From NCBI GenBank assembly GCA_025057155.1, contig JANWYD010000016.1:54056-118055 (forward strand): a stretch of DNA of 64,000 nucleotides. The letters run 5' to 3'. Of this stretch, positions 1,131-54,499 are shown piece by piece; position 1 is the first letter of the stretch, and the number at the start of each line of letters is the position of its first letter. A program made the position numbers and the translations under genes. Under the pieces are notes generated by a model. That model did not search any database. It was given only the letters and a program-made list of their open reading frames with translations, and was not told the DNA's origin. The DNA is from Chloroflexaceae bacterium (GTDB lineage Bacteria; Chloroflexota; Chloroflexia; Chloroflexales; Chloroflexaceae).

Positions 1131-1997
1131 ATGGACGAACCCTTCATACTGATCGTCGGCGCCGCCGACACGGGGCGCGCCCCGATCACCGTGGCGCTGT
1201 TGCGCCGTCTGGCCGCGCAGCGCGGCCTGAACTGGCGGATTGAATCGGCCGGCGTGGTCGGCCACGACGACGATCCCGCCGAACCTGAGGCCCGCGACGC
1301 GCTGCTGATCCTGGGTCTCGATCTGAGCGCCCATCGCGCCCGCTCCTTGACCGACGAACTGGCAGAGGCGGCGCGAGTGATCGTGACGGTTGACCGCGGC
1401 GTGGCCCGTGTAGTGCGCGCGAGACGTCCCGGCGCAAGCATTGCCGCCCTGGGCGAACTCGCCGGGCGCGAGCGTGACATCCCCGATCCCTTCCGGATGC
1501 AAGTCGGCGCATGGGTGCAGTATGCGCGCGAGATTGAAGCCTTGCTGGAGGCCGGCTTCCCCCGTCTCCAGACCCTGGTTATGGGTGAGACGCCGGTGGA
1601 GGAAGGACGTGCGTCTTCCGCTGCTGCCGACGAGCGCCCCGCCCGTTCGTCAGACCTGGCTGCACCGCTTGCCTCGACGGCGCCTGAACCGCGGCTGGCC
1701 GCCGTCGGGCGTATTTCGCGCCTCCTGGATCTGAGCGCGGAGATGCCCGGCGTGATTAACTGGGCGGGCGCGCGCCGCCAGATCGAAGCCGACCTCGGCG
1801 TGATGGAACAGCCCTTCACTCCCGATGACCTGGCCCGCCCCTACGTCGCCGTCCTGCGAGCGATGCTCGGCCTCTGCCCTGAAATCCCCGCCGCCGATCG
1901 CTGTGCCGCGCTGCGGGCCGCCGTGGCGCGGCTGCGGGCGCCTATCGCCAGCGGCGATCTTGAAACCCTATCACGGGAACTGGCAGCCTTCACCTGA
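1131..1997 (+). CDS. LMW protein-tyrosine-phosphatase/ArsC-fold protein lacking the catalytic cysteine, with a ~140-aa C-terminal extension
   Basis: The N-terminal LIVGAADTGRAP aligns to the V-C-x-G-N-x-C-R-S-P P-loop with Cys replaced by Gly and Arg retained. A DIPDPF general-acid loop is present. Confidence 0.65.
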   Translation: MDEPFILIVGAADTGRAPITVALLRRLAAQRGLNWRIESAGVVGHDDDPAEPEARDALLILGLDLSAHRARSLTDELAEAARVIVTVDRGVARVVRARRPGASIAALGELAGRERDIPDPFRMQVGAWVQYAREIEALLEAGFPRLQTLVMGETPVEEGRASSAAADERPARSSDLAAPLASTAPEPRLAAVGRISRLLDLSAEMPGVINWAGARRQIEADLGVMEQPFTPDDLARPYVAVLRAMLGLCPEIPAADRCAALRAAVARLRAPIASGDLETLSRELAAFT

Positions 1998-2119
1998 GGC
2001 TCGCGGCCGGCAATGCGGCTGCGCTGTGAACCATCAGAAGAGGAAAATGCTGGGAGGGCCCGGTTCGCAAAGACCCTCCCATCGAGCAGGAGCGTGGGGA
2101 AATCGGAGTTCCCCCGGAG

Positions 2120-3517
2120 TCAGCAATTAGCCGTGACGGGCAGGTAGAGGCGCTGCGGCAGATCGCGGCGCTGTTCGGGCAGCGCGGGTTCCTCATCGGC
2201 GGCGCCAGACCAGATGATCGGCCCCGGGTCCACGCCGCTGACCAGGCCGAGCGGCTGGAACATTTGCGCGGTCAGGCCGGGGAAGATTGCGCCCAGGTTC
2301 GGGTTGCCCAGGCGCCGCAGGATGATCTCGCCCAGCACCACCCGAAAATCGGTGGTGATCCGCAGATCCTGCCCCTGGTCCAGATCCACAAGGCCCGGCC
2401 ACTGACCGTACACCCGCCCGCCGTTGACGCCGCCGCCCAGAACGAGCATCACATTGCCGTGGCCATGGTCGGTGCCATTGCTGGCGTTGCGGCCCAGGCG
2501 CCGGCCAAACTCGCTCATTACCACAATGGTCAGGCGGTTCTGGTAGTCAACCAGGTCGCTGTAGAGGGCGAACAGACCCTGGGAGAGCATCCCCAGCCGG
2601 TCGGGCAGATAGCCGGTGCCATCGCTGTAGGCCTGGTTCTCGTGGGTGTCCCAGCCCCCCAGGTCCACGGTGGCGATGCGCAGCCCCTGCTCCATCTTGA
2701 CGAGCTGAGCCACCGTGCGCAGAGCGTTGCCAAACGAGCCACCGGGGTAGGTAACGCCATCGCGCGGCGTATAGTTTCCAGGATTGGCGGCGCGGATGGC
2801 CTTGATCGTCTCGATAGTGCGGCGTCCGGCGACGTCCACGGGGTTCAGGCCGCTGCCGGGGTAGAAGTTCTCCAGCGCGCGCATCAGCGGATAGCTTTCT
2901 TCGGGACGATTGTAGCGCCAGTGGGTATTAATGGTGAACGAGCGCGGGTTGGACATCGCTACAGCATCGCGGTAGGCCAGCAGCGATGCTGGCGTCTGGT
3001 TGCCCGCGGAGACCGCCGGCAGCAGCCCGGTGGTCAGGCCGCTGGTTTGCAGGTGACGGGTGATCCATCCACTGCCGGTGGTCTTATTTCCTGGCGTGCC
3101 GCGCTCCATATAGTCCATGGCGTCGAAATGGCTGCGGGTGTCGTCGTTGAGACCACAGGCATGGATCATCGCCAGCCGCCCGGCGTCGTAGAGTTCCCTG
3201 AGGTGGGGCATTTTGCTGTTCAGGCCAAAGCTGCTGGCGCCGTAGGAAGGATTGCGCGGATCGATCCGCAGGGGCGCGTTCTGCCCCGTCAGGGGCAGGG
3301 CGAGCGTGCCGCGAGCCTGCCGGTACGCCGGGTCATCGTAGGGGCAGAGCAGGCTCAACCCATCGCAACCTCCGCGCAGAAAGACGACGACCAGAATCTC
3401 ATCACTGCCAGCCGCGCCCACCGGGTCGGCAAAGATCAACTGGCTGACGCGACCGGCCGCCAGGGCCGCGATCGCCGCGCTGCATCCTACCAGAAACTCA
3501 CGTCGTGTCACTTCCAC
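2120..3517 (-). CDS. DUF1501 domain protein (sulfatase-like fold, Tat-secreted)
   Basis: A TRREFLVGCSAAIAALAAG twin-arginine signal and DUF1501-like conserved blocks (FLRGGCDGL, GGWDTHENQ, SEFGRR). I prefer the GTG at 3517, which has GGAGGA upstream. The track ORF extends to 3580. Confidence 0.8.
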   Translation of the reverse strand: MEVTRREFLVGCSAAIAALAAGRVSQLIFADPVGAAGSDEILVVVFLRGGCDGLSLLCPYDDPAYRQARGTLALPLTGQNAPLRIDPRNPSYGASSFGLNSKMPHLRELYDAGRLAMIHACGLNDDTRSHFDAMDYMERGTPGNKTTGSGWITRHLQTSGLTTGLLPAVSAGNQTPASLLAYRDAVAMSNPRSFTINTHWRYNRPEESYPLMRALENFYPGSGLNPVDVAGRRTIETIKAIRAANPGNYTPRDGVTYPGGSFGNALRTVAQLVKMEQGLRIATVDLGGWDTHENQAYSDGTGYLPDRLGMLSQGLFALYSDLVDYQNRLTIVVMSEFGRRLGRNASNGTDHGHGNVMLVLGGGVNGGRVYGQWPGLVDLDQGQDLRITTDFRVVLGEIILRRLGNPNLGAIFPGLTAQMFQPLGLVSGVDPGPIIWSGAADEEPALPEQRRDLPQRLYLPVTANC

Positions 3518-3752
3518 GATCCGTTCCTCCTCTCCGCAATGCGGTGATGAATCAGACAGGTCTTGCTGACAGAGCGCCACCCTCCCACAACCCTCCCCGC
3601 TGGCGGTGCGGCGAGGAACTTGACTTCCCTGCCCGCCGGTTGCTGCGCACAGAGACAGTGTGGCCGGGCGTGGGGGGGAACGCGCCCGGCCACACGAGGG
3701 CCACCAGTGGGGGGAAGGTCGGCCCTCCGGCAGAACGCGCCAGGCGCTGAAC

Positions 3753-5543
3753 CTAGCGCAGGTTAAATTCGGGACTCATGGCCAGGAGTTGCACCATCGT
3801 GCGCACCCGGTCGTGGACGCCCTCCATCGCGCCCCAATCCGGGGCGCGCGGCGTCGGGCGCGGCGGTGCATTGGGGTCGCCGCCAAAGGCGAGAAAGTTG
3901 ATCAGCTCGGCTCGCACGCGGGGCGTAAGCTCGAACCCGCACAGACGTCTGCTCCATTCGTCCACGATCTCGCGACAGGAGGCATTCAGGTTGGTTTGTC
4001 CGATGACATCAATGCTCACATTGCCGCCCCAGCTCTGGGTCATGGAGTAGAAGCTGTTCCAGCGCGCCAGCAAACTGTTGGTGTTCGCCCAGTAGCTGGC
4101 CGTGTCGGGATGGCCGGTTGGCGTGTCCCAGTCGAAGAGCTGGTGGCCGCTCTGGTCAGCGGTGTAGAACAGGCTGCTCCAGTAGCCGCCGCGGGTCGCA
4201 TCGCCATCAACCGACTCTACGTCGCTTGGCAGGCGCGCGTTCGTTGCGCGGAGAAAGGCCCACATTGCATCTAGCGGGCGGCGCATCTTGCGCCCGAAGG
4301 TAGTGCGACATTCGGGCGACAGCACGATGGTCCGCACCACCTGGCGGATCTGGTCGGGCGACCGGCGATTGGCCATCCACACCTCGACTGCCGCATCAAT
4401 CACCCGTTGCGGCGGATCGTCGGCGATGAGCCGCCGCGCGAGCTTGGTGCAGATGTGCCGCGCCGTGCCAGGATGATTGCAGAGCAGATCGAAGACCTGC
4501 TGGCCATCGGTCAGACCAGGCTGGTTGCGAGGGATGTTGGGGGCCGGCGGGATGCCCGGGGCCGGGCGCACCGCCAGAACAGTCTTGGGATTCGTGTCGT
4601 GCCAGTCGGCGAGGAAGTAGAACTCGCCCGTATTCGGACGCCCGTCGCGCCCGTTAGCGATCGTCCAGCCGGTGAAACAGCGAGCCGCTTCGTACACATC
4701 GTCGTCAATGTAGCCGCGCGGAAAGGTCTCGCTGCCATAGTTGATGGTATCAATCAGGCCGCGGTTATCGTAGAACTTAAGATAGTTGTCCGAGCCGAGG
4801 GTGTGCAACTCGAACAACTCGCGGGCATAGTTCTCATTGCCGCCTTCGCCCCCCGCCGCACGGTTGCTGACATTGTCCAGGTAGAGCATCATGGCGACGC
4901 TCTTGCCTACTTCTTCCACGAAGGTGCGAAAGTTCCCCAGGGCGTGGGTGCGGATCAGGCGGTCGTAAGCCGGCCAGGTGGCCGCAATGCTGCCATCGGC
5001 AGTGGCCTTCACATTAAAGTGGTTGTGCCAGAAATCCACCAGCACTTCGAAGAGCTGGCGCCGGCTATGAACGGCGCGGATCCAGGTGGCGACGCGTACC
5101 TCGTTGAAGGGCCTGACCCGCTCGTTCCAATCCATATTCATATTCATCCCGCCATTGGCGCGGGTCCACAACTCCGTGGCGCTGGCGCCGAGCAACTCCA
5201 GAGGGCGGGCCTGGTTGACCGTGCCGTAGCGGATCTTGAGCCGCACGGCGGCGATCAGTTGCTCACATTCGCTATCGTCAATCGTGGCCGGGTTGAGTTG
5301 CTGGTCAATCCAGCGTTCGTAGCGCTCGTCAGGGGTGGCGCCCAGGGCATTAAAAGCGGCGAGATCGCTGGCGCGCATCCCGTAAGCCAGCCGGTTGAGC
5401 GCAACGCTCGCCGGAGAAGCCGGGGGCAGCACCTGGCAGGCCGCCAGGACCGGGGCCGGCTCGCCGATCAGGGTGCGCGCCGTCGCGGCTGTGGCCGCCA
5501 GGGCTACGCTACTACCAAGCAGGTTGCGTCGAGTCAGCCTCAT
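3753..5543 (-). CDS. DUF1800 family protein (Tat signal), usual partner of DUF1501
   Basis: MRLTRRNLLGSSVALAATA Tat signal, a 596-aa DUF1800-like sequence, and a position directly upstream of the DUF1501 gene. Confidence 0.8.
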   Translation of the reverse strand: MRLTRRNLLGSSVALAATAATARTLIGEPAPVLAACQVLPPASPASVALNRLAYGMRASDLAAFNALGATPDERYERWIDQQLNPATIDDSECEQLIAAVRLKIRYGTVNQARPLELLGASATELWTRANGGMNMNMDWNERVRPFNEVRVATWIRAVHSRRQLFEVLVDFWHNHFNVKATADGSIAATWPAYDRLIRTHALGNFRTFVEEVGKSVAMMLYLDNVSNRAAGGEGGNENYARELFELHTLGSDNYLKFYDNRGLIDTINYGSETFPRGYIDDDVYEAARCFTGWTIANGRDGRPNTGEFYFLADWHDTNPKTVLAVRPAPGIPPAPNIPRNQPGLTDGQQVFDLLCNHPGTARHICTKLARRLIADDPPQRVIDAAVEVWMANRRSPDQIRQVVRTIVLSPECRTTFGRKMRRPLDAMWAFLRATNARLPSDVESVDGDATRGGYWSSLFYTADQSGHQLFDWDTPTGHPDTASYWANTNSLLARWNSFYSMTQSWGGNVSIDVIGQTNLNASCREIVDEWSRRLCGFELTPRVRAELINFLAFGGDPNAPPRPTPRAPDWGAMEGVHDRVRTMVQLLAMSPEFNLR

Positions 5544-5675
5544 AGAGCCTCGCTTCGTGCGTTGGAAAGTGCGGTTCGATGCTGTCGCTCATACCGCCAG
5601 TCGCGCCCCCAACCGGTTCGCCAGCGCTGCGGCGGCGAGCGCCTCAGGGGGGCGTCCCATAATGGACGCGCCATT

Positions 5676-5703
5676 AGTATAAAATCGGTTAAAAGATTGG
5701 CAA
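5676..5703 (-). promoter_or_regulatory. sigma70-type promoter for the DUF1800-DUF1501 operon
   Basis: On the minus strand: TTGCCA, a 16-nt spacer, then TATACT. This lies about 130 nt upstream of the start at 5543. Confidence 0.45.
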
Positions 5704-5879
5704 GGATGACGATGGTCCCGAAGACGCGGCGCTCCTGGTAAGACGGGTCGTACGGGTTATCGTCGGGGAAGGGCAAACGCCCGGCCAGATCGGGGCCTGA
5801 CCGGTTAGCATAATACGTGCTGGGGATTACCGCAGCGCGCGCAGATAAACGGAGCGGATGGACCCACCGACGCCCCTTT

Positions 5880-6053
5880 CTCAGGTGTAGGGTTTTCCGG
5901 CGCATCCTCGCGTCACATTCGCCATCCGGGGCATTGGGCCCCCCCCCGCCCCCCTCTCCACCTACGGTGGAGAGGGGGGCGGGGGGGTGAGGATCGGAAG
6001 CGCATTGGAATGCCGAAAACCCCTTCTCGCTCGAAAAACCCTGCACCTGAGAG
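5880..6053 (+). repeat. Family-1 dispersed element (~172 bp, terminal inverted repeats plus central hairpin), copy A
   Basis: The ends are CTCAGGTGTAGGGTTTTCCGG and CGAAAAACCCTGCACCTGAGAG. The centre is a 22-bp perfect stem (cccccccgcccccctctccacc / ggtggagaggggggcggggggg) with loop tacg. Confidence 0.85.
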
Positions 6054-6195
6054 CTGAAGCCCCTCCCGCGTCTCCGGAGAGGACGCACGTGGCAGATGCG
6101 CACGCTGCCTGGCAGAGCTTGCCGCGACAGGGGTTGTATGCTACGATGACGCACTGTTCCACAATAGCCGCATGACGGTAACCCTCCTATTGCCA

Positions 6196-6283
6196 ATTCC
6201 TGTTGAATAAACAGACTGCGCGCGCATCACCGCCAGGTCTCATCCGGACAGCGCATACGGCAATCGAAAATTCAAACTCTACC
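6196..6283 (-). repeat. Family-5 element (~85 nt ending in CCAAAATC-type octamers), degenerate copy just upstream of uvrA
   Basis: It aligns by eye at roughly three quarters identity with 63720-63803 through ttcctgttga...cgccaggtctcatc.gga...atacggcaatc.aaaat.caaa. Confidence 0.7.
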
Positions 6284-6290
6284 ATCCGAA

Positions 6291-9257: not shown

Positions 9258-9423
9258 CGGCCTGGCGAGGTTGCTCAAGCTCCGCTAACCGGCGCGAACG
9301 TGTTCGGCGGATGTGAACGCCTTCGCGCCTCCGAGAGCCGCAAAGGGCTTTAAACAGTTCGTCTTTTACGCTCCTTCGCGCGCTCTGGAGTCAATCTGTA
9401 CCGCCAGACACCGACGCGTCGCC

Positions 9424-9452
9424 TTGACACTCGCTCCCGTCACCCGTACCAT
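9424..9452 (+). promoter_or_regulatory. candidate promoter: TTGACA, 17 nt, TACCAT
   Basis: TTGACA at 9424-9429 and TACCAT at 9447-9452, upstream of the antiporter gene. Confidence 0.35.
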
Positions 9453-9648
9453 AATACGGAAGCCCCTGTTATCCCACGCTTCACAGGCGCCGGAACCACG
9501 CGGTTCAGGCGCGCGACTCTTTCCCAGACGGTTTGATCGCGCAGGGTGATGCTCCCTCGCGCCCGCGCGGGCGCGAAGGGGCATGGATCAACCTGTCGCG
9601 ACCATGCGAAAACTGCCGTTGATCGCCACGGAACGAGATGAGGGTGTC

Positions 9649-11172
9649 ATGCAAATCGAGTTTGTGATGCTGATCGCGGCGGGACTGGTGTTGCTCAGTG
9701 TCGTGGCCACCCGCACCTCGAACCGCCTGGGCGTGCCAGCCCTGCTGCTGTTTCTGGGCATCGGGATGCTTGCCGGCATTGACGGCCCGGGGCGCATTGA
9801 CTTTAACGATTTTGGACTGGCGCAGACCATCGGCGTGATCGCGCTGGCGTACATTTTGTTCTCTGGCGGTCTGGATACTGACTGGACAGCCATTCGTCCG
9901 GTGCTGGCGCAGGGGGTGGCGCTGGCCAATGTCGGCGTAGTGCTCAGCGCTGTTCTCCTGTGCGGCTTCGCCGTGCTGGCGCTCAACCTCGACTGGCGCA
10001 CCGGCTTGCTGCTGGGAGCCATCGTCTCGTCTACCGACGCGGCGGCGGTCTTCTCGGTGCTGCGCGAGCGGGGCGTCAACCTAAAGCACAACCTCGAACC
10101 GCTCATAGAGCTGGAGTCAGGCTCAAACGACCCGATTGCGGTCTTTCTGACGATCGGACTGGTGGATCTCATCACCACCCCGGGCGCCACGCTGCTGAAC
10201 CTGGTCCCCAGTTTCATCCTCCAGATGGCCCTTGGCGCGGCGGGGGGCGCTCTGTTTGGCTGGTTGATCGTGTTTACGGTCAATCGCATTCGCCTGCAAC
10301 AGGAGGGCTTGTACGTGGTCTTTACCCTCGCCGCGACGATGCTGACCTACGCGGCCACCGCTCTGGTTGGGGGCAATGGCTTCCTGGCCGTGTATCTGGC
10401 GGGGATCGTGGTGGGGAACCGCAACATTGTGCACAAGCGCAGTATTCTGCGCTTTCACGACGGGATCGCCTGGCTGATGCAGATTACCATGTTTCTGACA
10501 CTGGGCCTGCTGGTCACGCCCTCGCAACTGCTGCCGGTCGCGCCAGTGGGGCTGCTAGTGGCCCTGTTCCTCGTCTTCGTCGCCCGGCCGCTGAGCGTCA
10601 TCGGGTCGCTGATCTGGTTTCGGCGCTCGTTGCGTGAGCTGGGGATGGTATCCTGGGCGGGATTGCGCGGGGCGGTACCCATTATTCTGGCGACGTTTCC
10701 CCTGACCAGCGGGATACCGGGAGCAACAACCATCTTTAACGTCATCTTCTTCGTGGTGCTGGTATCGGTATTGCTGCAAGGGATGACGATTAACCGGGTC
10801 GCGCGCTGGCTGGGGCTGAACGCCGACAAGCCGCGGGGCGCCGACCGCCACACCTTCGTGCCGGATGTGCGTCTTAACAGCCGGCTGTTCGAGGTCATCG
10901 TCCCCGAAGGCTCCTCACTGGTAGGCAGCAGCCTGCTGGAACTGGGTCTGCCGCGGGGGGTGCTGGTGGTGCAGATCCACCGTGACGGCGACGCGCTTAT
11001 TCCTAACGGGAGCACCGTGCTCCACGCGGGCGACCATCTGCTGGTGCTGGCCACGCCCGAAACCCGATCGACCCTTGAACAGTTGTGCGACGAGTGCAGC
11101 GTGCAGTTGCTTAGCCCGGTGACCCTGGTGCGTCCGGTTGAGTTGCTTTCCAGCGAGATACGCCGAGGGTGA
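9649..11172 (+). CDS. K+/H+ (cation:proton) antiporter, NhaP2/CvrA type, with a C-terminal TrkA-C domain
   Basis: Multi-TM CPA1-like sequence with RLGVPALLLFLGIGMLAG and ELESGSNDPIAVFLT, and a soluble C-terminal domain. I prefer the ATG at 9649. The track ORF starts at 9583. Confidence 0.85.
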   Translation: MQIEFVMLIAAGLVLLSVVATRTSNRLGVPALLLFLGIGMLAGIDGPGRIDFNDFGLAQTIGVIALAYILFSGGLDTDWTAIRPVLAQGVALANVGVVLSAVLLCGFAVLALNLDWRTGLLLGAIVSSTDAAAVFSVLRERGVNLKHNLEPLIELESGSNDPIAVFLTIGLVDLITTPGATLLNLVPSFILQMALGAAGGALFGWLIVFTVNRIRLQQEGLYVVFTLAATMLTYAATALVGGNGFLAVYLAGIVVGNRNIVHKRSILRFHDGIAWLMQITMFLTLGLLVTPSQLLPVAPVGLLVALFLVFVARPLSVIGSLIWFRRSLRELGMVSWAGLRGAVPIILATFPLTSGIPGATTIFNVIFFVVLVSVLLQGMTINRVARWLGLNADKPRGADRHTFVPDVRLNSRLFEVIVPEGSSLVGSSLLELGLPRGVLVVQIHRDGDALIPNGSTVLHAGDHLLVLATPETRSTLEQLCDECSVQLLSPVTLVRPVELLSSEIRRG

Positions 11173-12127: not shown

Positions 12128-12326
12128 GCTGCTCGCCGGCGTGGGAGATTAAGCCAGCAGAGCGTTTTCCCCATCCCAACGCGCTGACCGCTTCGCCCCT
12201 GCACGTCCGTGTGACGCCTGCGGGGCGTCGGGCGTCGCGGAGCGAACCGGCAGGGGCGACCGGCCGGTCGCCCCTGCCGAAGGCCCAGCTCGCGCGTCAT
12301 GCATAGGTCCCGAAGGGGGGACTCTT

Positions 12327-12497
12327 CTCAGGTGTAGGATTTTCCGGCGCATCCTCGCGCCGCATGCGCCATCCGGGGCATTGGGACGCCCAACTTCCCC
12401 CTCTCCCGCGCGCGAGAGAGTGGAGGGGGGATGAGGACCGTAAGCGCAGTGGAATGCCGAAAACCCCTGCTCGCCCAAAAAATCCTACGCCTGAGAG
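12327..12497 (+). repeat. Family-1 element, copy B
   Basis: It has the same termini (ctcaggtgtaggattttccgg ... aaaaaatcctacgcctgagag) and the internal blocks catccggggcattgg and gtggaatgccgaaaacccc. Confidence 0.85.
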
Positions 12498-42562: not shown

Positions 42563-42607
42563 GCGATTTTGGATTTTGGATTTTGGATTTTGGATTTTGG
42601 ATTGCGG
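42563..42607 (+). repeat. octamer repeat (GATTTTGG x4 plus flanks) starting 2 nt after the ribA stop
   Basis: The sequence is gcgattttggattttggattttggattttggattgcgg. Confidence 0.9.
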
Positions 42608-42608
42608 G

Positions 42609-42920
42609 TTATACGGTTGGACTCAACAAGTTGTCATCCTCAAACTCTTCGTCACCGCACACGATGGTGATGTCCGGATAAGTGTATAACCCGGTCCGAG
42701 CCGATTTGACGCGCATATCGCTCGGGTAGACCACGCCGTCGCGCTGGCGCAGTTGAGCATAGAGCGCGGCATAGGCGCTGCCGGCAATGCGATTGTGGCG
42801 CTTGCTGCCGCCAGCCGTGGCGTAGATCTTCCCGGCGAGATACTCGCGCCTCTCTTCGCCGGCCCGCTCGAGGTCCAGATACTCCGCGGGCGTCAGGTGG
42901 GGCGCCGGTTGTGCGGTCAT
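42609..42920 (-). pseudogene. Uma2 (DUF820) family endonuclease, C-terminally truncated
   Basis: The N-terminal half matches the Uma2 pattern (TPAEYLDLE...EYLAGKIYATAGGSKRHNRIAG...YPDITIVCG). It stops at LLSPTV, exactly where the octamer repeat begins. Confidence 0.65.
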
Positions 42921-43002
42921 TGCAACTTCCCCGCTTCGAGAAAACGCCGGTTTGTTCTATGCTACGGTAGGTAGGCATTGAGTTCCTGCTCGCGCTCAGG
43001 CG

Positions 43003-43321
43003 TCATACCAGTATGCCTTCCCGTCTGGCGTTGCGATAGAGTTGAAGGCTGCCGCGCTCGAATTCATCGGCGAGAACAGGCCTGGCGGAAATGAGACGCT
43101 CAGATTCTAACTGGATGGGGTAGAGCACCTCCTATAACTCGGCGAAGTTCCGAAAAATAGTCGAAGGGATCGCCAAGCAGAACAAGCAGATCAATGTCGC
43201 TCATGGCGTCTGCCTGCTGACGGGCCACTGACCCATACAGCACCAGTCCTTTGAACCGCGGGCCATAATGGCTCTCCAGAGCCGCCTTACACTTGCCTAC
43301 CACTTCAGGTATTGTTGCCAT
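43003..43321 (-). pseudogene. MNT-type nucleotidyltransferase antitoxin with a +1 frameshift
   Basis: The track ORF (43100-43321) carries GSVARQQA..SDIDLLVL. The expected C-terminus EVLYPIQLESERLISARPVLADEFERGSLQLYRNARREGILV continues in another frame down to a TGA at 43003-43005. Confidence 0.65.
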
Positions 43322-43370
43322 GCAAACACCATCTACGCTTTGCGGACGAACCGGCCTTGCAATAACTTAT

Positions 43371-43506
43371 GATATAGCAGTCCTACGCCATCTCTAAACA
43401 GCGGCCGTGCATAAGGACGCAGCGCGCTGCGTCCTTGCAGCGCGCTGCGTCTCGACGGGTACGTCTGATACTCCGGGCTTTACAACCTGAAGAGGACTGC
43501 TATATC
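43371..43506. repeat. 136-bp unit bounded by a 14-bp perfect inverted repeat, with an internal 20-bp perfect palindrome
   Basis: The outer arms are gatatagcagtcct and aggactgctatatc. The core is ggacgcagcgcgctgcgtcc, followed by a partial repeat cagcgcgctgcgtc. Confidence 0.75.
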
Positions 43507-43627
43507 GCGCAAAGTTGCAGGACGGCGTCGCGCTTCGCCTGTCGCCTCAGACATCATTATGCCTGATCCGGCCTCGCGGGGCAACGGACCCGGCGCGCCT
43601 GCCCCTGCCGGCCGGCGGGGGCGCCGC

Positions 43628-44665
43628 TCAGGCGCGCAGATCGGCGAAGTAAAGATCCCAGAAGGGGTCCTCGCCCGGTTCGTCGAGCACGACGGTCGCG
43701 CCGTTGCGGCGCACGCTGCTCCGCCCCAGACTGCGGTCAAAATAGCCCAGTTCGTAGCTCTCGATGCCCGCGGCGCGCCAGGCGTCGCGAACGCGCGGCA
43801 CGCTGGAGGGTTCCACCGCCGCCAGCAGCGTGCCCTCGCTGATCGCCTGCCAGGGGTCGAACGCCAGGGCCCGGGCCAGTTCGCGGATGTCCGCCGGAAC
43901 TTCGATGGCATCGAGGTCAATGGCCACAGGGATGCCCGCCGCGTCGGCCATCTCGTAGGCGCCCCCCAGCACGCCGCTCTCGGTGGCGTCGTGCATGGCG
44001 TGGACGCCGCCGCAGGCGAAGGCGATCAGGGCGTCGTTGACCACAGTGATCTGCTCGACGCGCTGGCGCAGCCGGGCAAGCTGCTCCTCGGCGATCTGTC
44101 CTTTGAGGCGGTCCTGGTACACAATGGCGAGCAGCGCCGCCGCCTCGACCCCCGGCCCCTTGGTCATGAGCAACCGGTCGCCGTCCCGCGCGCCGCCGGG
44201 CGAAATCCAGGCGTCGCGTTCGGCGAAGCCCCAGACGGTCACGCCGCCGATGGTGGGGATGGTCACGGCGTCGTACCAGCCGGTGTGCCCGCCGACGATG
44301 CTGATGCCCAGCTCGAGGGCCGTATCAGCGATGGAGGTGATGATGGTCTGCGCGTCGCTTTCGGGGCCGGCAGTGGGCAGGAGCAGGGTGTAGGTCATGT
44401 AGCGCGGCTGCACGCCGGTGACGGCGACGTCGCTGGCCCCGATGTGGACGGTGAACCAGCCCATAATTTCCAGCGGCAGGCCGATGGCGGGGAAGATCGG
44501 ATCTTCGGCGACGGCCATGACCCGGCCGTCGGGGAGTTCGAGCACGGCAGCGTCGAAGCCCGGGCCGGGGGGCACGAGCAGGTGGGGCGCGGGCGCGCCG
44601 AGGCGCCCGCTGAGGAGGGCCTTCAGACGGCCCGGCGAAGGCTTGCCGATGCGGCGGTCACTCAT
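43628..44665 (-). CDS. AIR synthase-related (PurM/ThiL/HypE-fold) protein
   Basis: Two-domain PurM-like pattern (DAAVL...EDPIF, GGHTG, HDATESG). The ATG at 44665 overlaps the upstream stop (ATGAGTGA). Confidence 0.7.
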   Translation of the reverse strand: MSDRRIGKPSPGRLKALLSGRLGAPAPHLLVPPGPGFDAAVLELPDGRVMAVAEDPIFPAIGLPLEIMGWFTVHIGASDVAVTGVQPRYMTYTLLLPTAGPESDAQTIITSIADTALELGISIVGGHTGWYDAVTIPTIGGVTVWGFAERDAWISPGGARDGDRLLMTKGPGVEAAALLAIVYQDRLKGQIAEEQLARLRQRVEQITVVNDALIAFACGGVHAMHDATESGVLGGAYEMADAAGIPVAIDLDAIEVPADIRELARALAFDPWQAISEGTLLAAVEPSSVPRVRDAWRAAGIESYELGYFDRSLGRSSVRRNGATVVLDEPGEDPFWDLYFADLRA

Positions 44666-44972
44666 GGGCCACCTTCCTTCCCAGCACGGCCTCGACATCC
44701 TGGACCTTCCCCTGGAGGCGGTCGGCGGCCCCGGCGCGATCGTCGAGCGTAATGTGGGTCAGGACGCGGGGCGCCAGGGTGCGCATGTGCCGGTGGCAGG
44801 CCATGATCACCTCCATCACCTGCTCCGGCTCGCCTTCGAGGGTGGTCTGCATGGCTCCCATGGCGTAGCGCACGCCGGAAGCCTCGATGATCGGCGCCAG
44901 GGAGGCAATGTACTCTTTCAGTTCTTCGCCCACTCCCAGGGGCACGATGGAAAAACTGGCGAGCATGATCAA
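44658..44972 (-). CDS. MTH1187/YkoF-like thiamine-binding (UPF0045) family protein
   Basis: MLASFSIVPLGVGEELKEYIA...G..Y..G.M.T.LEGE, a 104-aa protein. Confidence 0.7.
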   Translation of the reverse strand: MIMLASFSIVPLGVGEELKEYIASLAPIIEASGVRYAMGAMQTTLEGEPEQVMEVIMACHRHMRTLAPRVLTHITLDDRAGAADRLQGKVQDVEAVLGRKVAHE

Positions 44973-45087
44973 CCTCCTTGCTGCGACCAGGGCATTTTCC
45001 TTATCCCAACGCGCTGACGACCCTCATCCCCCGTGCTACTCTCCCGGACGCGCTGTGCATCATCCACAGCCTGTAGCCCGGCGGCTG

Positions 45088-45203
45088 ATGAAGATTCAGA
45101 ATATAAACCGGTATTCGCCCTGTGGCCCGGCGGCTGAAGCCGCGGGCTGCCGATGCGAAGCCCGCCTGCGCGGGCTGTATCGGATTTATTCTTGATGATT
45201 CAT
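45088..45203 (+). repeat. Family-3 MITE-like element
   Basis: The ends are atgaagattcagaatataaaccggtattcgccctgtggcccggcggctgaagccgcgggct and cggatttattcttgatgattcat. Confidence 0.85.
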
Positions 45204-45227
45204 AAATAGTCTGCAAAGTCCCGACGT

Positions 45228-45341
45228 TGCCCCCCCTCCCAGCCTCCCCCCGTTGGGGGGAGGCGCCGGGCGCCCTCCCCCAGCGGGGGAGGGTTGGGGA
45301 GGGGGTGGGAGTTCAGCGAAAGACTTTGTTTACAGACTAAT
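45228..45341 (-). repeat. Family-2 element (reverse orientation)
   Basis: The hairpins cctcccccc gttg gggggagg and ccctccccc agcg ggggaggg are followed by cgaaagactttgtttacagactaat. Confidence 0.75.
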
Positions 45342-45796
45342 AAATCGCGCCTGTACGGGCTGAATCCGTTCGCCAGCGCGGACGGCAGCGTCCACCTGCG
45401 TGGAGGCCAGGCGATTCGCCCGCCAGAGGCGACCTCAGCTTCGTAACTGAGCGTCCTGATGCCCCCAACGGACTATCTGAGTCCATGGATGCGCCACAAA
45501 ACCCTGCTCCTGAGAGGGGTCAGGCACGAAGCAGATTGACGCGCGACAGGATAAAACAGTCATTATTATGCACGATCGAGGGTCAGGATGCAATGCGCCC
45601 GAGGCGGGCGCGGGCGCCGCCAGCGGGAGCGGGGCTGGTATTGACAGCGTGAGAGCCGGCATCTCGCGCCGCCTGCGCCCTTCGATGGGGTGAGGGGAGG
45701 AACGCGCCCTGTGGGGGATCGTGCTGATGGGCGGGATGAATGAGGGGAAATATCAAAATGGTTGCCACGATGAATTTCACGTGAAGGGAACGACTG

Positions 45797-45912
45797 ATGA
45801 AGATTAAGAATATAAACCGGTATTCGCCCTGTGGCCCGGCGGCTGAAGCCGCGGGCTGCCGATGCGAAGCCCGCCTGCGCGAGCTATGCCGGATTTAATT
45901 CTTCATCTTCAT
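45797..45912 (+). repeat. Family-3 MITE-like element
   Basis: Nearly identical to 45088-45203 over the first ~75 nt. The TIRs are gaagattaagaatataaaccgg and ccggatttaattcttcatcttc. Confidence 0.85.
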
Positions 45913-46168
45913 AAGTCGTTACAACGACACCTCCCCCATCCGCCAATGCGCCGCCCGGGGAAGGGCCGCCTATGGTTAAGAAATAAAGCCGGTATAGCCC
46001 GCGCAGGTCGTTATCATGCCCCGGCTCCGAGGAATCTCAAGACGAGCCGCTGCAAAATCTCTTCTATTTGTAATTTGCCATGGGCCTTCGGAATATGCTA
46101 TATCTTCATTGCGGCCGCGTTCATAGCAGTGATTCCGGAATGGTGCAGCCTTCCCGGCTCCTCCCCCT

Positions 46169-46338
46169 CTCAGGCGCAGGGTTTTTTGGGCGAGCAGGAG
46201 TTTTCGGCATTCCAATGCGCTTACGGTCCTCACACCCTGCCCCCCTCTCCCTGAGCGGGAGAGGGGGGAGTTAGGCGTCCCGATGCCCTGGATGGAGCAT
46301 GCGACGCGAGGATGTGCCGGGAAACCTTACACCTGAGA
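46169..46338 (-). repeat. Family-1 element, copy D
   Basis: The left end is ctcaggcgcagggttttttgggcgagcagg, the stem cccccctctccc tgagc gggagagggggg, and the right end gggaaaccttacacctgaga. Confidence 0.85.
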
Positions 46339-46399
46339 AGGCCCCTCTCCGCGGGCCGGGGCGTGGGACAACCCGGTTTCCCCACACCCCCCACGGCGC

Positions 46400-46723
46400 G
46401 GTGGCGCGGGTGTAACGAAACGTTCTGCACGTGCCACGGCCCACCGGCCCGCCGGGAGCCCGAAGGCTCCGGCTTGCCTTGCGAAGGCCGCCTCCGTAGC
46501 CTGCTGAAGCCGGCGCAGGCTTCGCCGTGAGCCCTGGCCTGAGCCGGGACGAAGGCTTAGCTGAACGGCCGGCTTCGCAGGACGTTCGCCCGCGGCCGAT
46601 GAAGATGACGCATTACATGCGGTAGAGCCCGCGCAGGCGGGCTTCGCATCGCTAGCCCGCGGCTTCAGCCGCCGGGCGAAGGGGAACGTGCAGAACGTTT
46701 CGTCACACCCCAGCGGCGCCACC
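46400..46723. repeat. ~325-bp unit bounded by ~35-bp imperfect inverted repeats, with a reversed family-3 core inside
   Basis: The left arm is ggtggcgcgggtgtaacgaaacgttctgcacg. The right arm is cgtgcagaacgtttcgtcacaccccagcggcgccacc. Confidence 0.7.
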
Positions 46724-46736
46724 AGGGAGCGGCAGT

Positions 46737-49700
46737 ATGACCAGCGATGAGACGGGCGCGACCGACCTGCCAGCCGATCTCAAGGCCCTGCTCGACGCCG
46801 CCGGCGTTACTGATGCGGCGTCGCTGCAACGCGCCCTGGAAAGCGACCCGCAGCTTCGCGAGCGTTTCGTAGCCTTTGTGCAGGCCCAGGTGCAGGCCCT
46901 GGGCGATGCGGTCGTTGCGGCCTTGCTTGCCGATGTGCCCGAGGACCTGCGCGCGCGCCTGGAAGCCGCTGGCGGGTCCGACCAGGCCGTCCTGCAGCAG
47001 GCCCTGGAGGCCGACGCGCAGCTAAAGGCTGATCTGAAGGCGTTCTTGGAGGCGCGTCGGACCGAGGCGCTGCCGCAAGGGCTCGACGGCTATCTGACTG
47101 CCTTCGCTGAGGTCGAGGACACGGAGCAACTGGGCCACCTGTGGATGTAGATCCCATCCGAGCTGGAGCAGCCCTTCCTCGAGGCGGTCGAGGACCGGAT
47201 CGCGCAGGCTGAACTGGCGGGCAATGCTGAGCTAGCCGAGGGGTTGCGCCAGCGCCGCGACGCGCTGCGCCAGATGCTCGGCCAGGCCCAGGCAGCCGCC
47301 GCCCGCATCGCCCAGGATGTCGCCCGTCTCGAGGCGGCAGATGACGGGCAGACAGTTGTCGCAATCTGGAACGCGATCCCGATTGAACTGGAAGAGCCGT
47401 TCCTCGACGCCGCCGAGCACCGCGCCGCCGAGCTAGGCGACGCGCCCCAGGCCGAGCGCATGCGCGCCCACGTTGCGGCTTTGCGCCAGGCTCGCCAGCA
47501 GCGCGAGGAGCTGGAGCGCCAGCCCCCGGTCGTCCGCGCGCTGCTGAGCTTCGTGTACGCCCCCGACGACGCCACGGCCCGCCAGGTCTTCGCGGCGCAG
47601 CAGGCCCTGCTCCAGCCCTACGAGGCCCAGCGCGTGGCCGATGCCCTCGCCGACCAGGCGCCCGACGAACTCCGCGAACGCTTCGCCGCCCGCGCCGCGC
47701 TGCTGCGGGAACTGCGCGGCGCCGCGCCGCAGCCGGCGCCGGTTGTGGCCCCGCCGCCCCCCGCCGGCCTGCGGGACGACTTCGGCGGGCGGTCGTTTTC
47801 GGTGCAAAATGCGACGATCGAGGGCGACCTGATCCAGGCCGCCGGCGACTACATTGACCAGACCACCATCCATCTGGTGCAACGGCGCGAATGGATCCCG
47901 CCGCCGCCGCCCTCCCCGCCCGAGGATGCGATTGACCGCCCCAAGCGCGTCGCCGAGGTGGCCAGGCTCCTTGCCGACGCCGGCACGGTGGCCATTGGCG
48001 GGCGCCTCCCTCCCCGCGTCACAGTGGCCATGCAGGGCATGGCCGGGAGCGGGCCTGCCTGGCGGCCCTCGACCAGGCCCTGGTCGCCCCGCCCGCCGAT
48101 CTCGAGGCGGCGCAGCGGGAGCTACGGAGGGGCCTCGATACCCTCCTGGCCGATGACCCGGCCCACGATTTCGTCGCGGCGCACCTGCTGCCGACCGCCG
48201 CGCGCCTGTTGCAAACGGCCCTTGTCGAAGATGAGGCCGCCTGGCGGGAGTACCACGGCCACCTGATCGCCCGCCTGGCGGCCCGCGCCGGGGAGGGGCC
48301 GGAGGGCCTGGAGACGCTGCTGGCAAAGATCGCCGATCAGGAACGGGCCCTGGCCGCCCTGCGCGCCGCGACGGAACGGTTGAACGCCCTGCTCGCCGCT
48401 GAGGGCGCCCCCGCTCCGGCCAGGTTCGAGAACCGCGATCTGGAGGTCGGCGGGGAACTGGTGCAGGCCGCCAGTGACATCACGCTGGGCCTGCCGCCCG
48501 ATCCCTCCGCCACGGCGCCCCCGCCGCGATGGCCATCCGGCCCGGTGGTTTTTCAGAATGTCGGGTTGAAAGTTAATGGGAGCGTGTACCAGAGCGGCGG
48601 AAATTTCACCCGCGCGGCCCCGGTGGAGGAGGCCACGCCCCCCGCCGCGGCCCCCGGGCCGATCACGCTCACCCTCCGGTTCACCCCCGCTTCCGGCGGG
48701 GCGCAGGTGCGCTGGCGCGCCGATGAGCTCGGCGAGTTCAGCAGCGACCTGGCCGCGCCTTACCGCGGGCGCGACCTGGCCGCGGTGCTGCGCGCCCTGG
48801 AGCGCCGCCAGCACCCGGCCTTCGCCCTGGCCGAGGGCGACGCGGAGCGCCTGCGCGCCCTGGGCCTGCTCAGCGCCGGCGGCGAACCGCTGGCCGATCT
48901 GCCGCGCCTGGTCGGGCAGGCCCTCTACGCTGCCCTGGTCCGCGAGCAGGGGCTGGCGGCCCTGGCCCTGGTCCGCAGCCAGGCCGCCCCCGCGGGCCGC
49001 CCGCTGGCCCTGCGCCTGCTGCTGCCGCCCGAGGCGGTCGAACTGGCGGCCCTGCCCTGGGAGTTGCTCTGGCCGCCGCGGGAGGGGCTGCCGCTGCTGC
49101 TCGGGGCCGCGCCGCCCGTGCTGCTTACCCGCCATCTGGACCTCGACGGGCCGCTTCCCCGCTTCGAGCCGCGCCAGGGGCGGCCCCTGCGCATCCTCTC
49201 GCTCGTGCCAGAGGTGCAGCGCGCGCCGGGGGACCTGGCGGAGACCCGGGCGCGGCTGGGCCGCCTGTGGGACGAGTTGCGCGCGCGGGGCGTGGCCGAG
49301 GCGTTTGAGGTCAGCCCGGTGACGCGGGAGGATCTGCGCCGCGCCATGGAATACCGGCCCGACATTGTGCAGTTCACCGGCCACGGCTGGTACGCCGAGG
49401 GGCGCGGCGTGCTGCTGCTCGACCCGCTGACGCCCGGCGCGCCCGCCGAGCGGGTGGAGGCTGATCGGGTGGCGGTGGCGCTGCGGGGGGCGCGCATGGT
49501 GGTGCTCGCCGCCTGCCGGGGGGCCCAGGGGGCGGGCATTGAGGGCGGGGCGGCGAGTCTGTTGACGGGGGTGGCTCCGGCGCTGAGCGCGGCGGGCGCG
49601 CCGCTGGTGCTGGGGATGCAACTCGGCATCGGCGCGGACGCGGCGCTGCGGGCCGTCGAGGCGCTCTACGCGGCCCTGGCCCGCGGCCTCGGCGCGCAGG

Positions 49701-49813
49701 CCGCGGTGGGCGAGGCCCGCGCCGCGCTCTACGTCGGCGCGCCGGAGCGGGACGCCTGGTACGTGCCGGCGCTGTATGTGCGCAGCCGCGAGGCGGGGCC
49801 GGTGGTAGTGTAG
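46737..49813 (+). pseudogene. CHAT (caspase-like protease) domain protein gene interrupted by an in-frame TAG (47148-47150) and a frame switch near 48040-48060
   Basis: Track ORFs 46737-47150 and 47244-48266 are in the same frame. The third ORF is open from 47936 and ends in a CHAT domain (IVQFTGHG...VVLAACRG). Confidence 0.7.
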
Positions 49814-49901
49814 GGGGGAAACCGGGTTTGCCCGGTTTCCCCCCCCTCCCAACCTCCCCCCAACGGAGGGAGGCGCCGAACGCCCTCCCCCGGCGGGGGC
49901 T

Positions 49902-50072
49902 CTCAGGCGCAGGGTTTTTTGGGCGAGCAGGGGTTTTCGGCATTCCAATGCGCTTACGGTCCTCACCCCCCTGCCCCACTCTCCCTGAGCGGGAGAAGGG
50001 GGAGCTGGGCGTCCCGATGCCCCGGACGGCGCATGCGACAAGAGGATGTCCGGAAAACCTCATACCTGAGAG
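49902..50072 (-). repeat. Family-1 element, copy E (closest relative of copy D)
   Basis: It shares ctcaggcgcagggttttttgggcgagcagg.gttttcggcattccaatgcgcttacggtcctcac and tccctgagcgggaga with copy D. Confidence 0.85.
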
Positions 50073-50162
50073 GTTTCCCCGCGCCCCTGCCCGGCGGGCA
50101 AGAGCTGGAACGCCGCAGACGCGCATCCGCCCGCGGGAGCGACCAGGCGCCCGTCCGGGCAT

Positions 50163-50390
50163 TCACGCCAATCGGCAGATGTAGCATTCGTGGCCGGGAT
50201 GGATCGCTCCGGTGGCGCGGACAACCGCCACGAAGCCGCCGGAGAGACCTTCGTTGTAGAAAGCGAGCGGCCGTCCCTCGGCGTCGCGCGCCTGCTCCAC
50301 GCAGGCGGCGCACACCGCCCGCGGGTAGCGCGGGTCGAAAGGCCGCGGGGCGCCGCACAGGGGGCATTCCGCCTGTGGCGTATCGTTCAT
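50163..50390 (-). CDS. hypothetical small Cys-rich (zinc-ribbon-like) protein
   Basis: CPLCG...CAAC...HECYIC, high GC3, 75 aa. The SD is weak. Confidence 0.45.
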   Translation of the reverse strand: MNDTPQAECPLCGAPRPFDPRYPRAVCAACVEQARDAEGRPLAFYNEGLSGGFVAVVRATGAIHPGHECYICRLA

Positions 50391-50505
50391 GGCGGGTTCT
50401 ACTCCTCACTCACCATTCGCTCATATCGTCCCCACATCCCTCCTCCAGCAGAGGCCTCGTCTTCCACTGGTATAATACCTCCCGTCAGCGATAGCGGAGG
50501 GACCT

Positions 50506-51912: not shown

Positions 51913-51975
51913 AGGGGAGAGCATTCCAGGAGCAATAGGTTTGCTCCGCTCGGCACGCCCCTCTCCGAACCTCTT

Positions 51976-52147
51976 CTCAGGTATAGGGTCTTTCGGGCGA
52001 GCAGGGGTTTTCGGCATTCCAATATGCTTACGATCTTCACCCCCCCGCCCCCCGCTCCCGCGCGCGGGAGCGGGGGGCGCTGGGCGTCCCGATGCCCCGG
52101 ATGGCGCATGCTCGCGTCGCAGGCGCCGGAAAACCCTACACCTGAGA
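51976..52147 (-). repeat. Family-1 element, copy F
   Basis: The central perfect palindrome is gccccccgctcccgcg/cgcgggagcggggggc, with the typical termini. Confidence 0.85.
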
Positions 52148-54222: not shown

Positions 54223-54230
54223 GCGAGGTT

Positions 54231-54403
54231 CTCAGGTGGAGAGTTTTCCGGCGCATCCTCGGCTCGCATGCGCCATCCGGGGCATCGGGACGCCCAGCGC
54301 CCCCCGCTCCTGCGCGCGGGAGCGGGGGGCAGGGGGGTGAGGACCGTAAGCGCATGGGAATGCCGACAACCCCTGCTCGCTCGAAAAACCCCACACCTGA
54401 GAG
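54231..54403 (+). repeat. Family-1 element, copy G
   Basis: The left end is ctcaggtggagagttttccggcgcatcctcgg, the stem ccccccgctcc tgcgcgc gggagcgggggg, and the right end cgaaaaaccccacacctgagag. Confidence 0.85.
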
Positions 54404-54499
54404 GAGCACTACCCGCATCCTGGGCGGAAAACAGGCGAACGCGGCGACCGGGCAAGGGCCGGTTTGCCGCGTTCTGATGCGGGCATTAACTATCAGATG

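Follow-up and report, generated by a model that had tools for sequence, protein, structure and literature searches.

A probable relic of a two-gene NLR-like sensor and CHAT protease operon, broken by a nonsense codon and a deletion, in a Chloroflexaceae genome

Bacterial conflict systems that couple STAND/NLR-like NTPases to caspase-superfamily (CHAT) effectors have been catalogued by Kaur, Burroughs, Iyer, and Aravind (eLife 2020, PMC7159879; eLife 2021, PMC8195603), and the same two papers define the EAD11, EAD7, and TCAD9 domains. Here, we examine a locus of related makeup at positions 46737–49813 of a 64,000-nt stretch from a Chloroflexaceae bacterium (GCA_025057155.1, contig JANWYD010000016.1, positions 54,056–118,055 of the forward strand), called the window throughout and numbered from its first letter. 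Like the catalogued systems, the intact relatives of this locus pair an NB-ARC NTPase carrying TPR superstructure repeats with an adjacent gene for a caspase-fold peptidase. The copy in the window is very probably the dead remnant of such an operon, in which an NLR-like sensor (gene A) was followed by a caspase-like effector (gene B), and in which a nonsense TAG and a deletion of ~3.0–4.5 kb have destroyed the pair.

How many genes are represented here? The open reading frames (ORFs) 46737–47150 and 47244–48266 lie in a common frame (frame 0) and are separated solely by the TAG at 47148–47150. Frame 0 reads like protein through ...VTVAMQGMAGSG to 48053 and is Arg/Pro-rich junk beyond that point. 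The −1 frame, which holds the CHAT domain, reads like protein from ~48041 (RERACLAALDQAL...), is open from 47936 onward, has its earliest start codon—a TTG—at 48209, and stops at a TAG at 49811–49813; both frames are open together over 47936–48266 (330 nt). The sequence-only reading, made earlier by a model from the letters and a list of ORFs, had described these frames in the same way, with the turn into junk near 48050, and our ORF table and translation agree with it. It had also placed the TAG within an internal repeat: the repeat is significant (E=2e-11, 41% identity over 59 residues by pairwise BLASTP), with an offset of 75 residues, not the ~65 first given. The public annotation of assembly GCA_033583995.1 (JAVQYK010000016.1, 4529–7605; our locus L035) lists three independent genes of 137, 340, and 534 aa at this site and attaches no pseudogene label.

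To place these pieces, relatives were drawn from 40 related genomes, searched in six frames with the middle piece, from metagenome contigs, and from a protein database. The six-frame search recovered uninterrupted long frames in a genome of the same genus (G004, 71% identity) and in one of the same order (G033, 42%). Gene A measures 1111 aa from its ATG in G004, 1502 aa in G033, and 1822 aa in the metagenome contig L039. The frame-0 product of the window (residues 10–439) aligns with residues 5–424 of the L039 protein, which has NB-ARC and TPR domains, at 55% identity over 431 residues and without a break. Where the window reads TGG ATG TAG ATC CCA, L039 reads TGG GCG CAG ATC CCC and a further contig, L040, reads TGG CAA CAG ATC CCG. 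Because CAG (Gln) is aligned in these two intact orthologues, the TAG at 47148–47150 is, on the alignment, a nonsense substitution—C-to-T in Gln codon 138—and the earlier view that it replaces a sense codon was right. TAG also closes the CHAT gene at its conserved C-terminus, so it is an ordinary stop in this genome. Gene A retains a good ribosome-binding site: GGGAG lies 8 nt ahead of its start.

The second lesion lies in the nucleotide-binding motif of gene A. The window's GMAGSG, ending at 48053, aligns with the Walker A sequences GMAGVGKT of L039 and GIAGIGKT of G004 and is the first half of that motif, where gene A breaks off: GxxxxGK[ST] is incomplete in the window, which reads QGMAGSG before the break, whereas the orthologues read QGMAGVGKT or QGIAGIGKT. 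The orthologues go on GIGKTTLA... into the NB-ARC domain; the G004 frame passes "...TVAIGGRSTVALQGIAGIGKTTLAQL..." and then continues into NB-ARC and TPR repeats. In tblastn comparisons, the homology of gene A from G004 (residues 20–198, 70% identity), G033 (8–516), and G013 (3–94) ends in every case at 48053. Homology to gene B begins in the −1 frame, at 48044 (G013 residue 92) or 48050 (G004), and counted from the homologous ATG in G004, gene B has lost 93 residues at the junction. Because the homology of A stops within Walker A and that of a separate gene B starts at residue ~92–94, the apparent frame switch is a deletion of ~3.0–4.5 kb that fused two genes out of frame, and not the loss of 1 or 4 nt that had been proposed. 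The missing stretch measures ~3010 nt against G004 and ~4460 nt against L039; with it, A lost its entire NTPase/TPR body, and B lost its start along with its first helices. The bases between the break points (GCC GGG AGC GGG CC TGC) make sense in the reading of either gene, a pattern that would fit a deletion between two short stretches of similar sequence.

Domain searches give the same picture. No NB-ARC or TPR match was found in the window pieces by Pfam and NCBIfam profile scans, and the two N-terminal pieces yielded sub-threshold noise alone. The gene A orthologues match NB-ARC models (4.8e-14 for G004 and 3.4e-15 for L039) and, more weakly, NACHT models, and they carry TPR matches (Pfam). 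The missing NB-ARC/TPR segment is absent from the rest of the 5.13-Mb assembly, in which a search returned only the locus itself and weak TPR matches.

The right part of the locus is, by homology, the interior and C-terminus of the separate gene B. A genome search found an intact 665-aa gene B in G013, and its residues 92–665 match window positions 48044–49810 at 51% identity (tblastn). A protein-database search with the CHAT piece returned ten full-length relatives of 647–695 aa (48–58% identity); in an alignment with these ten, the window begins at column 93, without the ATG and the conserved N-terminus MASDLQKTIAGALLFGASALTGNALLMTAAGGIGVNWTSEGLAGLW. The CHAT domain (~48911–49741) matches Pfam CHAT (PF12770) over residues 288–564 of the 587-aa piece (E=4.6e-22; 79.2 bits against a cut-off of 24), and the PADLOC "chat" model matches at 8.3e-23. 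The catalytic dyad noted in the sequence-only reading is intact: the His codon lies at 49382–49384 (FTGHG) and the Cys codon at 49514–49516 (LAACRG), and the H of FTGHGWY and the C of LAACRG occupy nearly invariant or invariant columns in the ten orthologues (H541 and C586 of P0002, one of these proteins). The relic has no start of its own, as its first ~92 residues and ATG are gone, and the sole start codon is the internal TTG at 48209, near residue 148 of P0002 and without a Shine–Dalgarno sequence. A model of P0002 shows a helical bundle (residues 4–217), a disordered linker, a small beta/alpha domain, and a CHAT fold, with a mean predicted local distance difference test score (pLDDT) of 61. 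Its top Foldseek matches—SAVED-CHAT, Csx29, separase, MALT1, and caspases—indicate a caspase-like fold. Mapped onto this model, the deletion removes the first three helices of the bundle and cuts the fourth, and the ORF starting at the TTG would begin in the sixth.

What did the operon look like before it decayed? Four independent A-then-B pairs, intact or near-intact, are found in L039, L040, L038, and G004, with an NB-ARC–TPR gene of 763–1822 aa and a CHAT gene of 684–695 aa (Table 1). Judging from these pairs, the ancestral state is two genes and not a single gene of ~1020 aa. In the intact relatives, gene A comprises an N-terminal alpha-helical repeat module, a linker, the NB-ARC ATPase, TPR, and a second helical module at the C-terminus; in gene B (~685 aa), a helical bundle at the N-terminus is joined by a disordered linker to a small beta/alpha domain, which precedes the CHAT protease at the C-terminus. 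The 11-nt overlap of B's ATG with A's stop in three of the pairs implies translational coupling. Comparison with orthologues thus yields two genes with boundaries of their own and not three conserved genes with the boundaries of the three window ORFs; the earlier suggestion that the locus has decayed is correct.

Table 1. Coordinates of the relic, its lesions, and the intact relatives (window numbering unless another contig is named)
Feature	Position	Strand	Basis or remark
ORF, 137 aa	46737–47150	+	Frame 0; terminates at TAG
ORF, 340 aa	47244–48266	+	Frame 0
Gene A relic, codons 1–137, first units of N-terminal alpha-helical repeat module	46737..47147	+	L039 alignment, AlphaFold model
Nonsense TAG in gene A	47148..47150	+	Predicted helix end, within W-x-x-[IVL]-P-x-E-L-E-x-P-F repeat motif
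Gene A relic, codons 139–439: remaining helical module, Pro-rich linker, FSVQNATIEGDLIQAAGDYIDQTT segment, pre-P-loop region, half Walker A (QGMAGSG without K-T)	47151..48053	+	tblastn, orthologue alignment
Deletion junction, gene A frame 0 / gene B −1 frame	48041..48053	+	GCC GGG AGC GGG as A end, CGG GAG CGG GCC TGC as B start
Gene B relic, CHAT protease without first ~92 residues	48044..49813	+	tblastn, alignment, Pfam, PADLOC
Longest startable CHAT-frame ORF, TTG start, 534 aa	48209..49813	+	Annotated as gene publicly
Segment with 1.7-kb repeat nest, A/B relic, small ORF	44979..50438		Empty site in same-genus G007
Helical module, window	46737–47720
Helical module, L009	1231–2082
Helical module, L013	1507–2247	−
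Helical module, L039	2543–3520
L039 gene A (1822 aa, NB-ARC + TPR)	2543–8011
L039 gene B (695 aa)	8001–10088		Overlap with gene A 11 nt
L040 gene A, then gene B			Overlap 11 nt
G004 gene A (1111 aa), then gene B			Overlap 11 nt, ATGGCGAGTGA
L038 NB-ARC gene (763 aa) upstream of CHAT gene (684 aa)			Small 90-aa antisense ORF between

By analogy with the STAND/NLR-like systems and CHAT proteases of PMC7159879 and PMC8195603, and with the solved SAVED-CHAT and Csx29 systems, the product of intact gene A would sense a ligand from an invader through its TPR or helical repeats, oligomerise through NB-ARC upon NTP binding, and then activate B; activated B would act as a protease cleaving cellular or effector substrates. 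Two lesions, presumably in this order, broke the pair in this genome: a C-to-T change in Gln codon 138 of A produced the TAG, and a deletion running from the middle of Walker A to about codon 93 of B left the −1 fusion. Gene A has thereby been deprived of its NTPase and sensor, and gene B of a start codon, of coupling to A, and of its best-conserved helices at the N-terminus. The CHAT remnant is probably not expressed.

Could the locus instead have been a single gene? The sequence-only reading had proposed an ancestral product of ~1020 aa, with helical repeats leading into a CHAT domain, interrupted by the TAG and the loss of 1 or 4 nt. Such a gene would fit the overlap of the two frames in the open stretch 47936–48266 and the protein-like sequence on both flanks. 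The left flank, however, is half of a Walker A motif that every orthologue continues into NB-ARC, and the right flank starts at residue ~93 of a separate conserved gene of 650–695 aa. A helical module–CHAT fusion of this size occurs in none of the 113 representatives of the helical-module family and in none of 20 CHAT homologues, and we consider this explanation highly improbable. Under programmed recoding, read-through of the TAG and a −1 ribosomal frameshift would join the helical module to CHAT. The frame change does have −1 geometry, and the two frames share 330 nt, but the overlap holds no slippery heptamer X_XXY_YYZ (none in any phase at 47930–48266), AAAAAAG is absent from 46–50 kb, the orthologues are uninterrupted at the TAG position and have a further 3–4.5 kb of coding sequence where the window has its junction, and TAG terminates the CHAT gene itself; such recoding is vanishingly unlikely. 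Phase-variable inactivation, also raised earlier, is not borne out: no homopolymer or short tandem repeat lies at 47140–47160 or 48030–48060, and a repeat search found none at the lesions. An assembly artefact, with mis-joins or consensus errors over an intact operon, would be in keeping with a draft of 189 contigs, with the poor assembly of TPR-repeat genes, and with G013, whose contigs break in the homologous gene. Yet both lesions are 100% identical in GCA_033583995.1 (on a contig of 101,829 nt, the window's own measuring 134,051 nt) and in a Logan contig of SRR15826902, no orphan contig carries the missing NB-ARC/TPR part, and the sequence at the junction is unique rather than repetitive; we regard an artefact as very unlikely. 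A literature search found no paper naming the assembly or run accession.

The deletion may also be real and the CHAT remnant still in use, as a standalone protease of 534 aa or less made from an internal start and freed of its STAND regulator. The remnant keeps the dyad and nearly all invariant residues, and both this genome (contig C102) and most relatives have short CHAT paralogues of 456–491 aa whose alignment starts only at query residue ~200. Against this, the only start is a TTG lacking a Shine–Dalgarno sequence and lying 58 nt inside the out-of-frame tail of the 340-aa ORF, translation from upstream ends earlier, at the TAG, the first codons of the ORF fall midway through a helical bundle, and an open frame is weak evidence at 76% GC. 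Continued use of the remnant is therefore unlikely in our judgment. We give equally little credence to a bolder proposal, that the intact pair is an undescribed two-gene NLR-like system with a rare alpha-solenoid module at both ends of its sensor, that CHAT is recruited through its N-terminal helix, and that the deletion, having taken out exactly the regulator and this helix, left a deregulated protease still in use.

Some observations nonetheless weigh against a dead remnant with two real lesions, and they limit how precisely it can be described. The closest orthologues are only 55–72% identical and no near-identical intact allele is at hand, which means that the size and end points of the deletion are bracketed. 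The three assemblies that agree on the lesions may come from the same reads, making the agreement independent of assembler and not of sample. The window CHAT differs at 11 of 160 otherwise invariant columns, against 0–12% for the intact orthologues in a leave-one-out count. This count was chosen over the ratio of nonsynonymous to synonymous substitution rates (Ka/Ks) because, at 55–72% protein identity, synonymous sites would be saturated. The CHAT remnant thus bears no sign of long neutral drift, and residual function may be conceivable.

GC content around the locus is 65–76%, and an antisense ORF of 639 aa (48122–50041, minus strand) spans the entire CHAT gene with an Arg/Gly/Pro-rich translation. 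It looks like a by-product of 76% GC rather than a gene. At such a GC content, long open frames carry little weight.

Two parts of the intact pair deserve separate description. The helical module of gene A has 113 cluster representatives among 1.84 billion proteins and no Pfam model. NB-ARC–TPR proteins carry one copy N-terminally and another C-terminally, and the module also occurs as free proteins of 246–283 aa in unrelated gene contexts. An AlphaFold model of the module is an all-helical repeat with a mean pLDDT of 93; a fold search with it gave no significant match in the PDB, the weak ones being to designed repeat proteins and 14-3-3 (best E=0.015). In the gene B family (P0002–P0011), residues 1–47, which are missing in the window, form a Gly/Ala-rich hydrophobic N-terminal helix (TIAGALLFGASALTGNALLMTAAGG). 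This helix is the most conserved part outside the CHAT domain, and its Kyte–Doolittle 19-mer peak of 1.63 is borderline for a membrane helix; it could dock on the gene A product or on the membrane.

How widely is the pair distributed among close relatives? Within eight congeners, it is present only in G004, on another contig. There, gene B (L017, contig C408, minus strand ~2455–2510) is split by a frameshift into ORFs 3825..2173 and 2455..1682, which could reflect independent decay or a consensus error in a metagenome-assembled genome. Because the same-genus genomes G005 and G007 have empty sites at the position of the relic, window positions 42596–50444 are, by this comparison, a variable accessory island. 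In G005, the sequences matching window positions 42595 and 50445 are separated by just 142 bp. In G007, which retains the AIR-synthase-like gene and the thiamine-binding-protein gene, only 686 bp lie between the latter (window 44978) and the MFS transporter gene (window 50439); an 88-bp piece of the old intergenic region (window 45517–45604) persists in G007.

Several smaller features surround the relic. Between it and the MFS transporter gene lies a small Cys-rich ORF (CxxC...CxxC) of 75 aa (50163–50390, minus strand). Direct repeats of ~178 bp flank the locus at 46163–46340 and 49896–50072 and recur in the window at 51970–52124, 12317–12497, and 54228–54406; the family has at least 40 copies in the genome at 85–91% identity, out of 167 first-look candidates. 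We considered whether the flanking copies mark a composite element and dropped the idea, as at least 40 dispersed copies make such flanking expected by chance. Nothing at 44–53 kb, the 178-bp repeat included, matched an Rfam family, and promoter and terminator scans over 46300–50200 found nothing.

These results correct the reading of the locus: the three annotated genes of 137, 340, and 534 aa are fragments of two, and the CHAT ORF is truncated at its N-terminus, such that counts of caspase-like or NLR-like genes in Chloroflexales would err here. The locus offers a clear example of the loss of a STAND/CHAT pair, through a nonsense mutation and an internal deletion, in an island missing from congeners. 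What happened here is the ordinary decay of genes within a variable island of the genome, and the relic opens no new question. Comparing it with relatives also brought out a two-gene family in intact form, of which L039 is the best representative, together with a rare helical module.

How does this family compare with known systems? As with the systems catalogued in PMC7159879 and PMC8195603, the intact relatives are found in filamentous Chloroflexales, have a patchy distribution among congeners, and lie in a variable island. Sister and more distant CHAT paralogues carry EAD11, EAD7, and TCAD9, and the sister clades with these domains place the family in the effector-sharing network. No Pfam match to EAD, bDLD, TCAD, Death-like, or TRADD-N domains was found in gene A or gene B, in the window or the orthologues (E<=1). 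In the EAD-coupled systems (Kaur et al. 2020), the core NTPase and its neighbouring effector share one effector-associated domain; here, instead, gene A has the rare helical module at both ends and gene B a helical bundle of its own that is unclassified, and the window copy is, very probably, dead. The family is built on the same three-part logic as Avs (antiviral STAND) and bNACHT proteins, with an effector, a STAND ATPase, and a repeat sensor, although PADLOC Avs models gave no match; in those systems the effector is fused to the N-terminus of one polypeptide, whereas here the protease is a separate, coupled gene (L039, L040, G004, and L038). Finally, SAVED-CHAT (8tl0), the Csx29/TPR-CHAT protein of type III-E CRISPR (8eey, 7y9x), and separase (5fby) share the caspase-like fold and His/Cys dyad, with Foldseek E values of 4e-7 to 8e-5 against the P0002 model; sequence identity to them is 12–20%, and the model is of modest confidence. 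The activating partner in those systems is a cyclic-oligonucleotide SAVED sensor or Cas7-11, whereas in the family described here it would be an NB-ARC NTPase.

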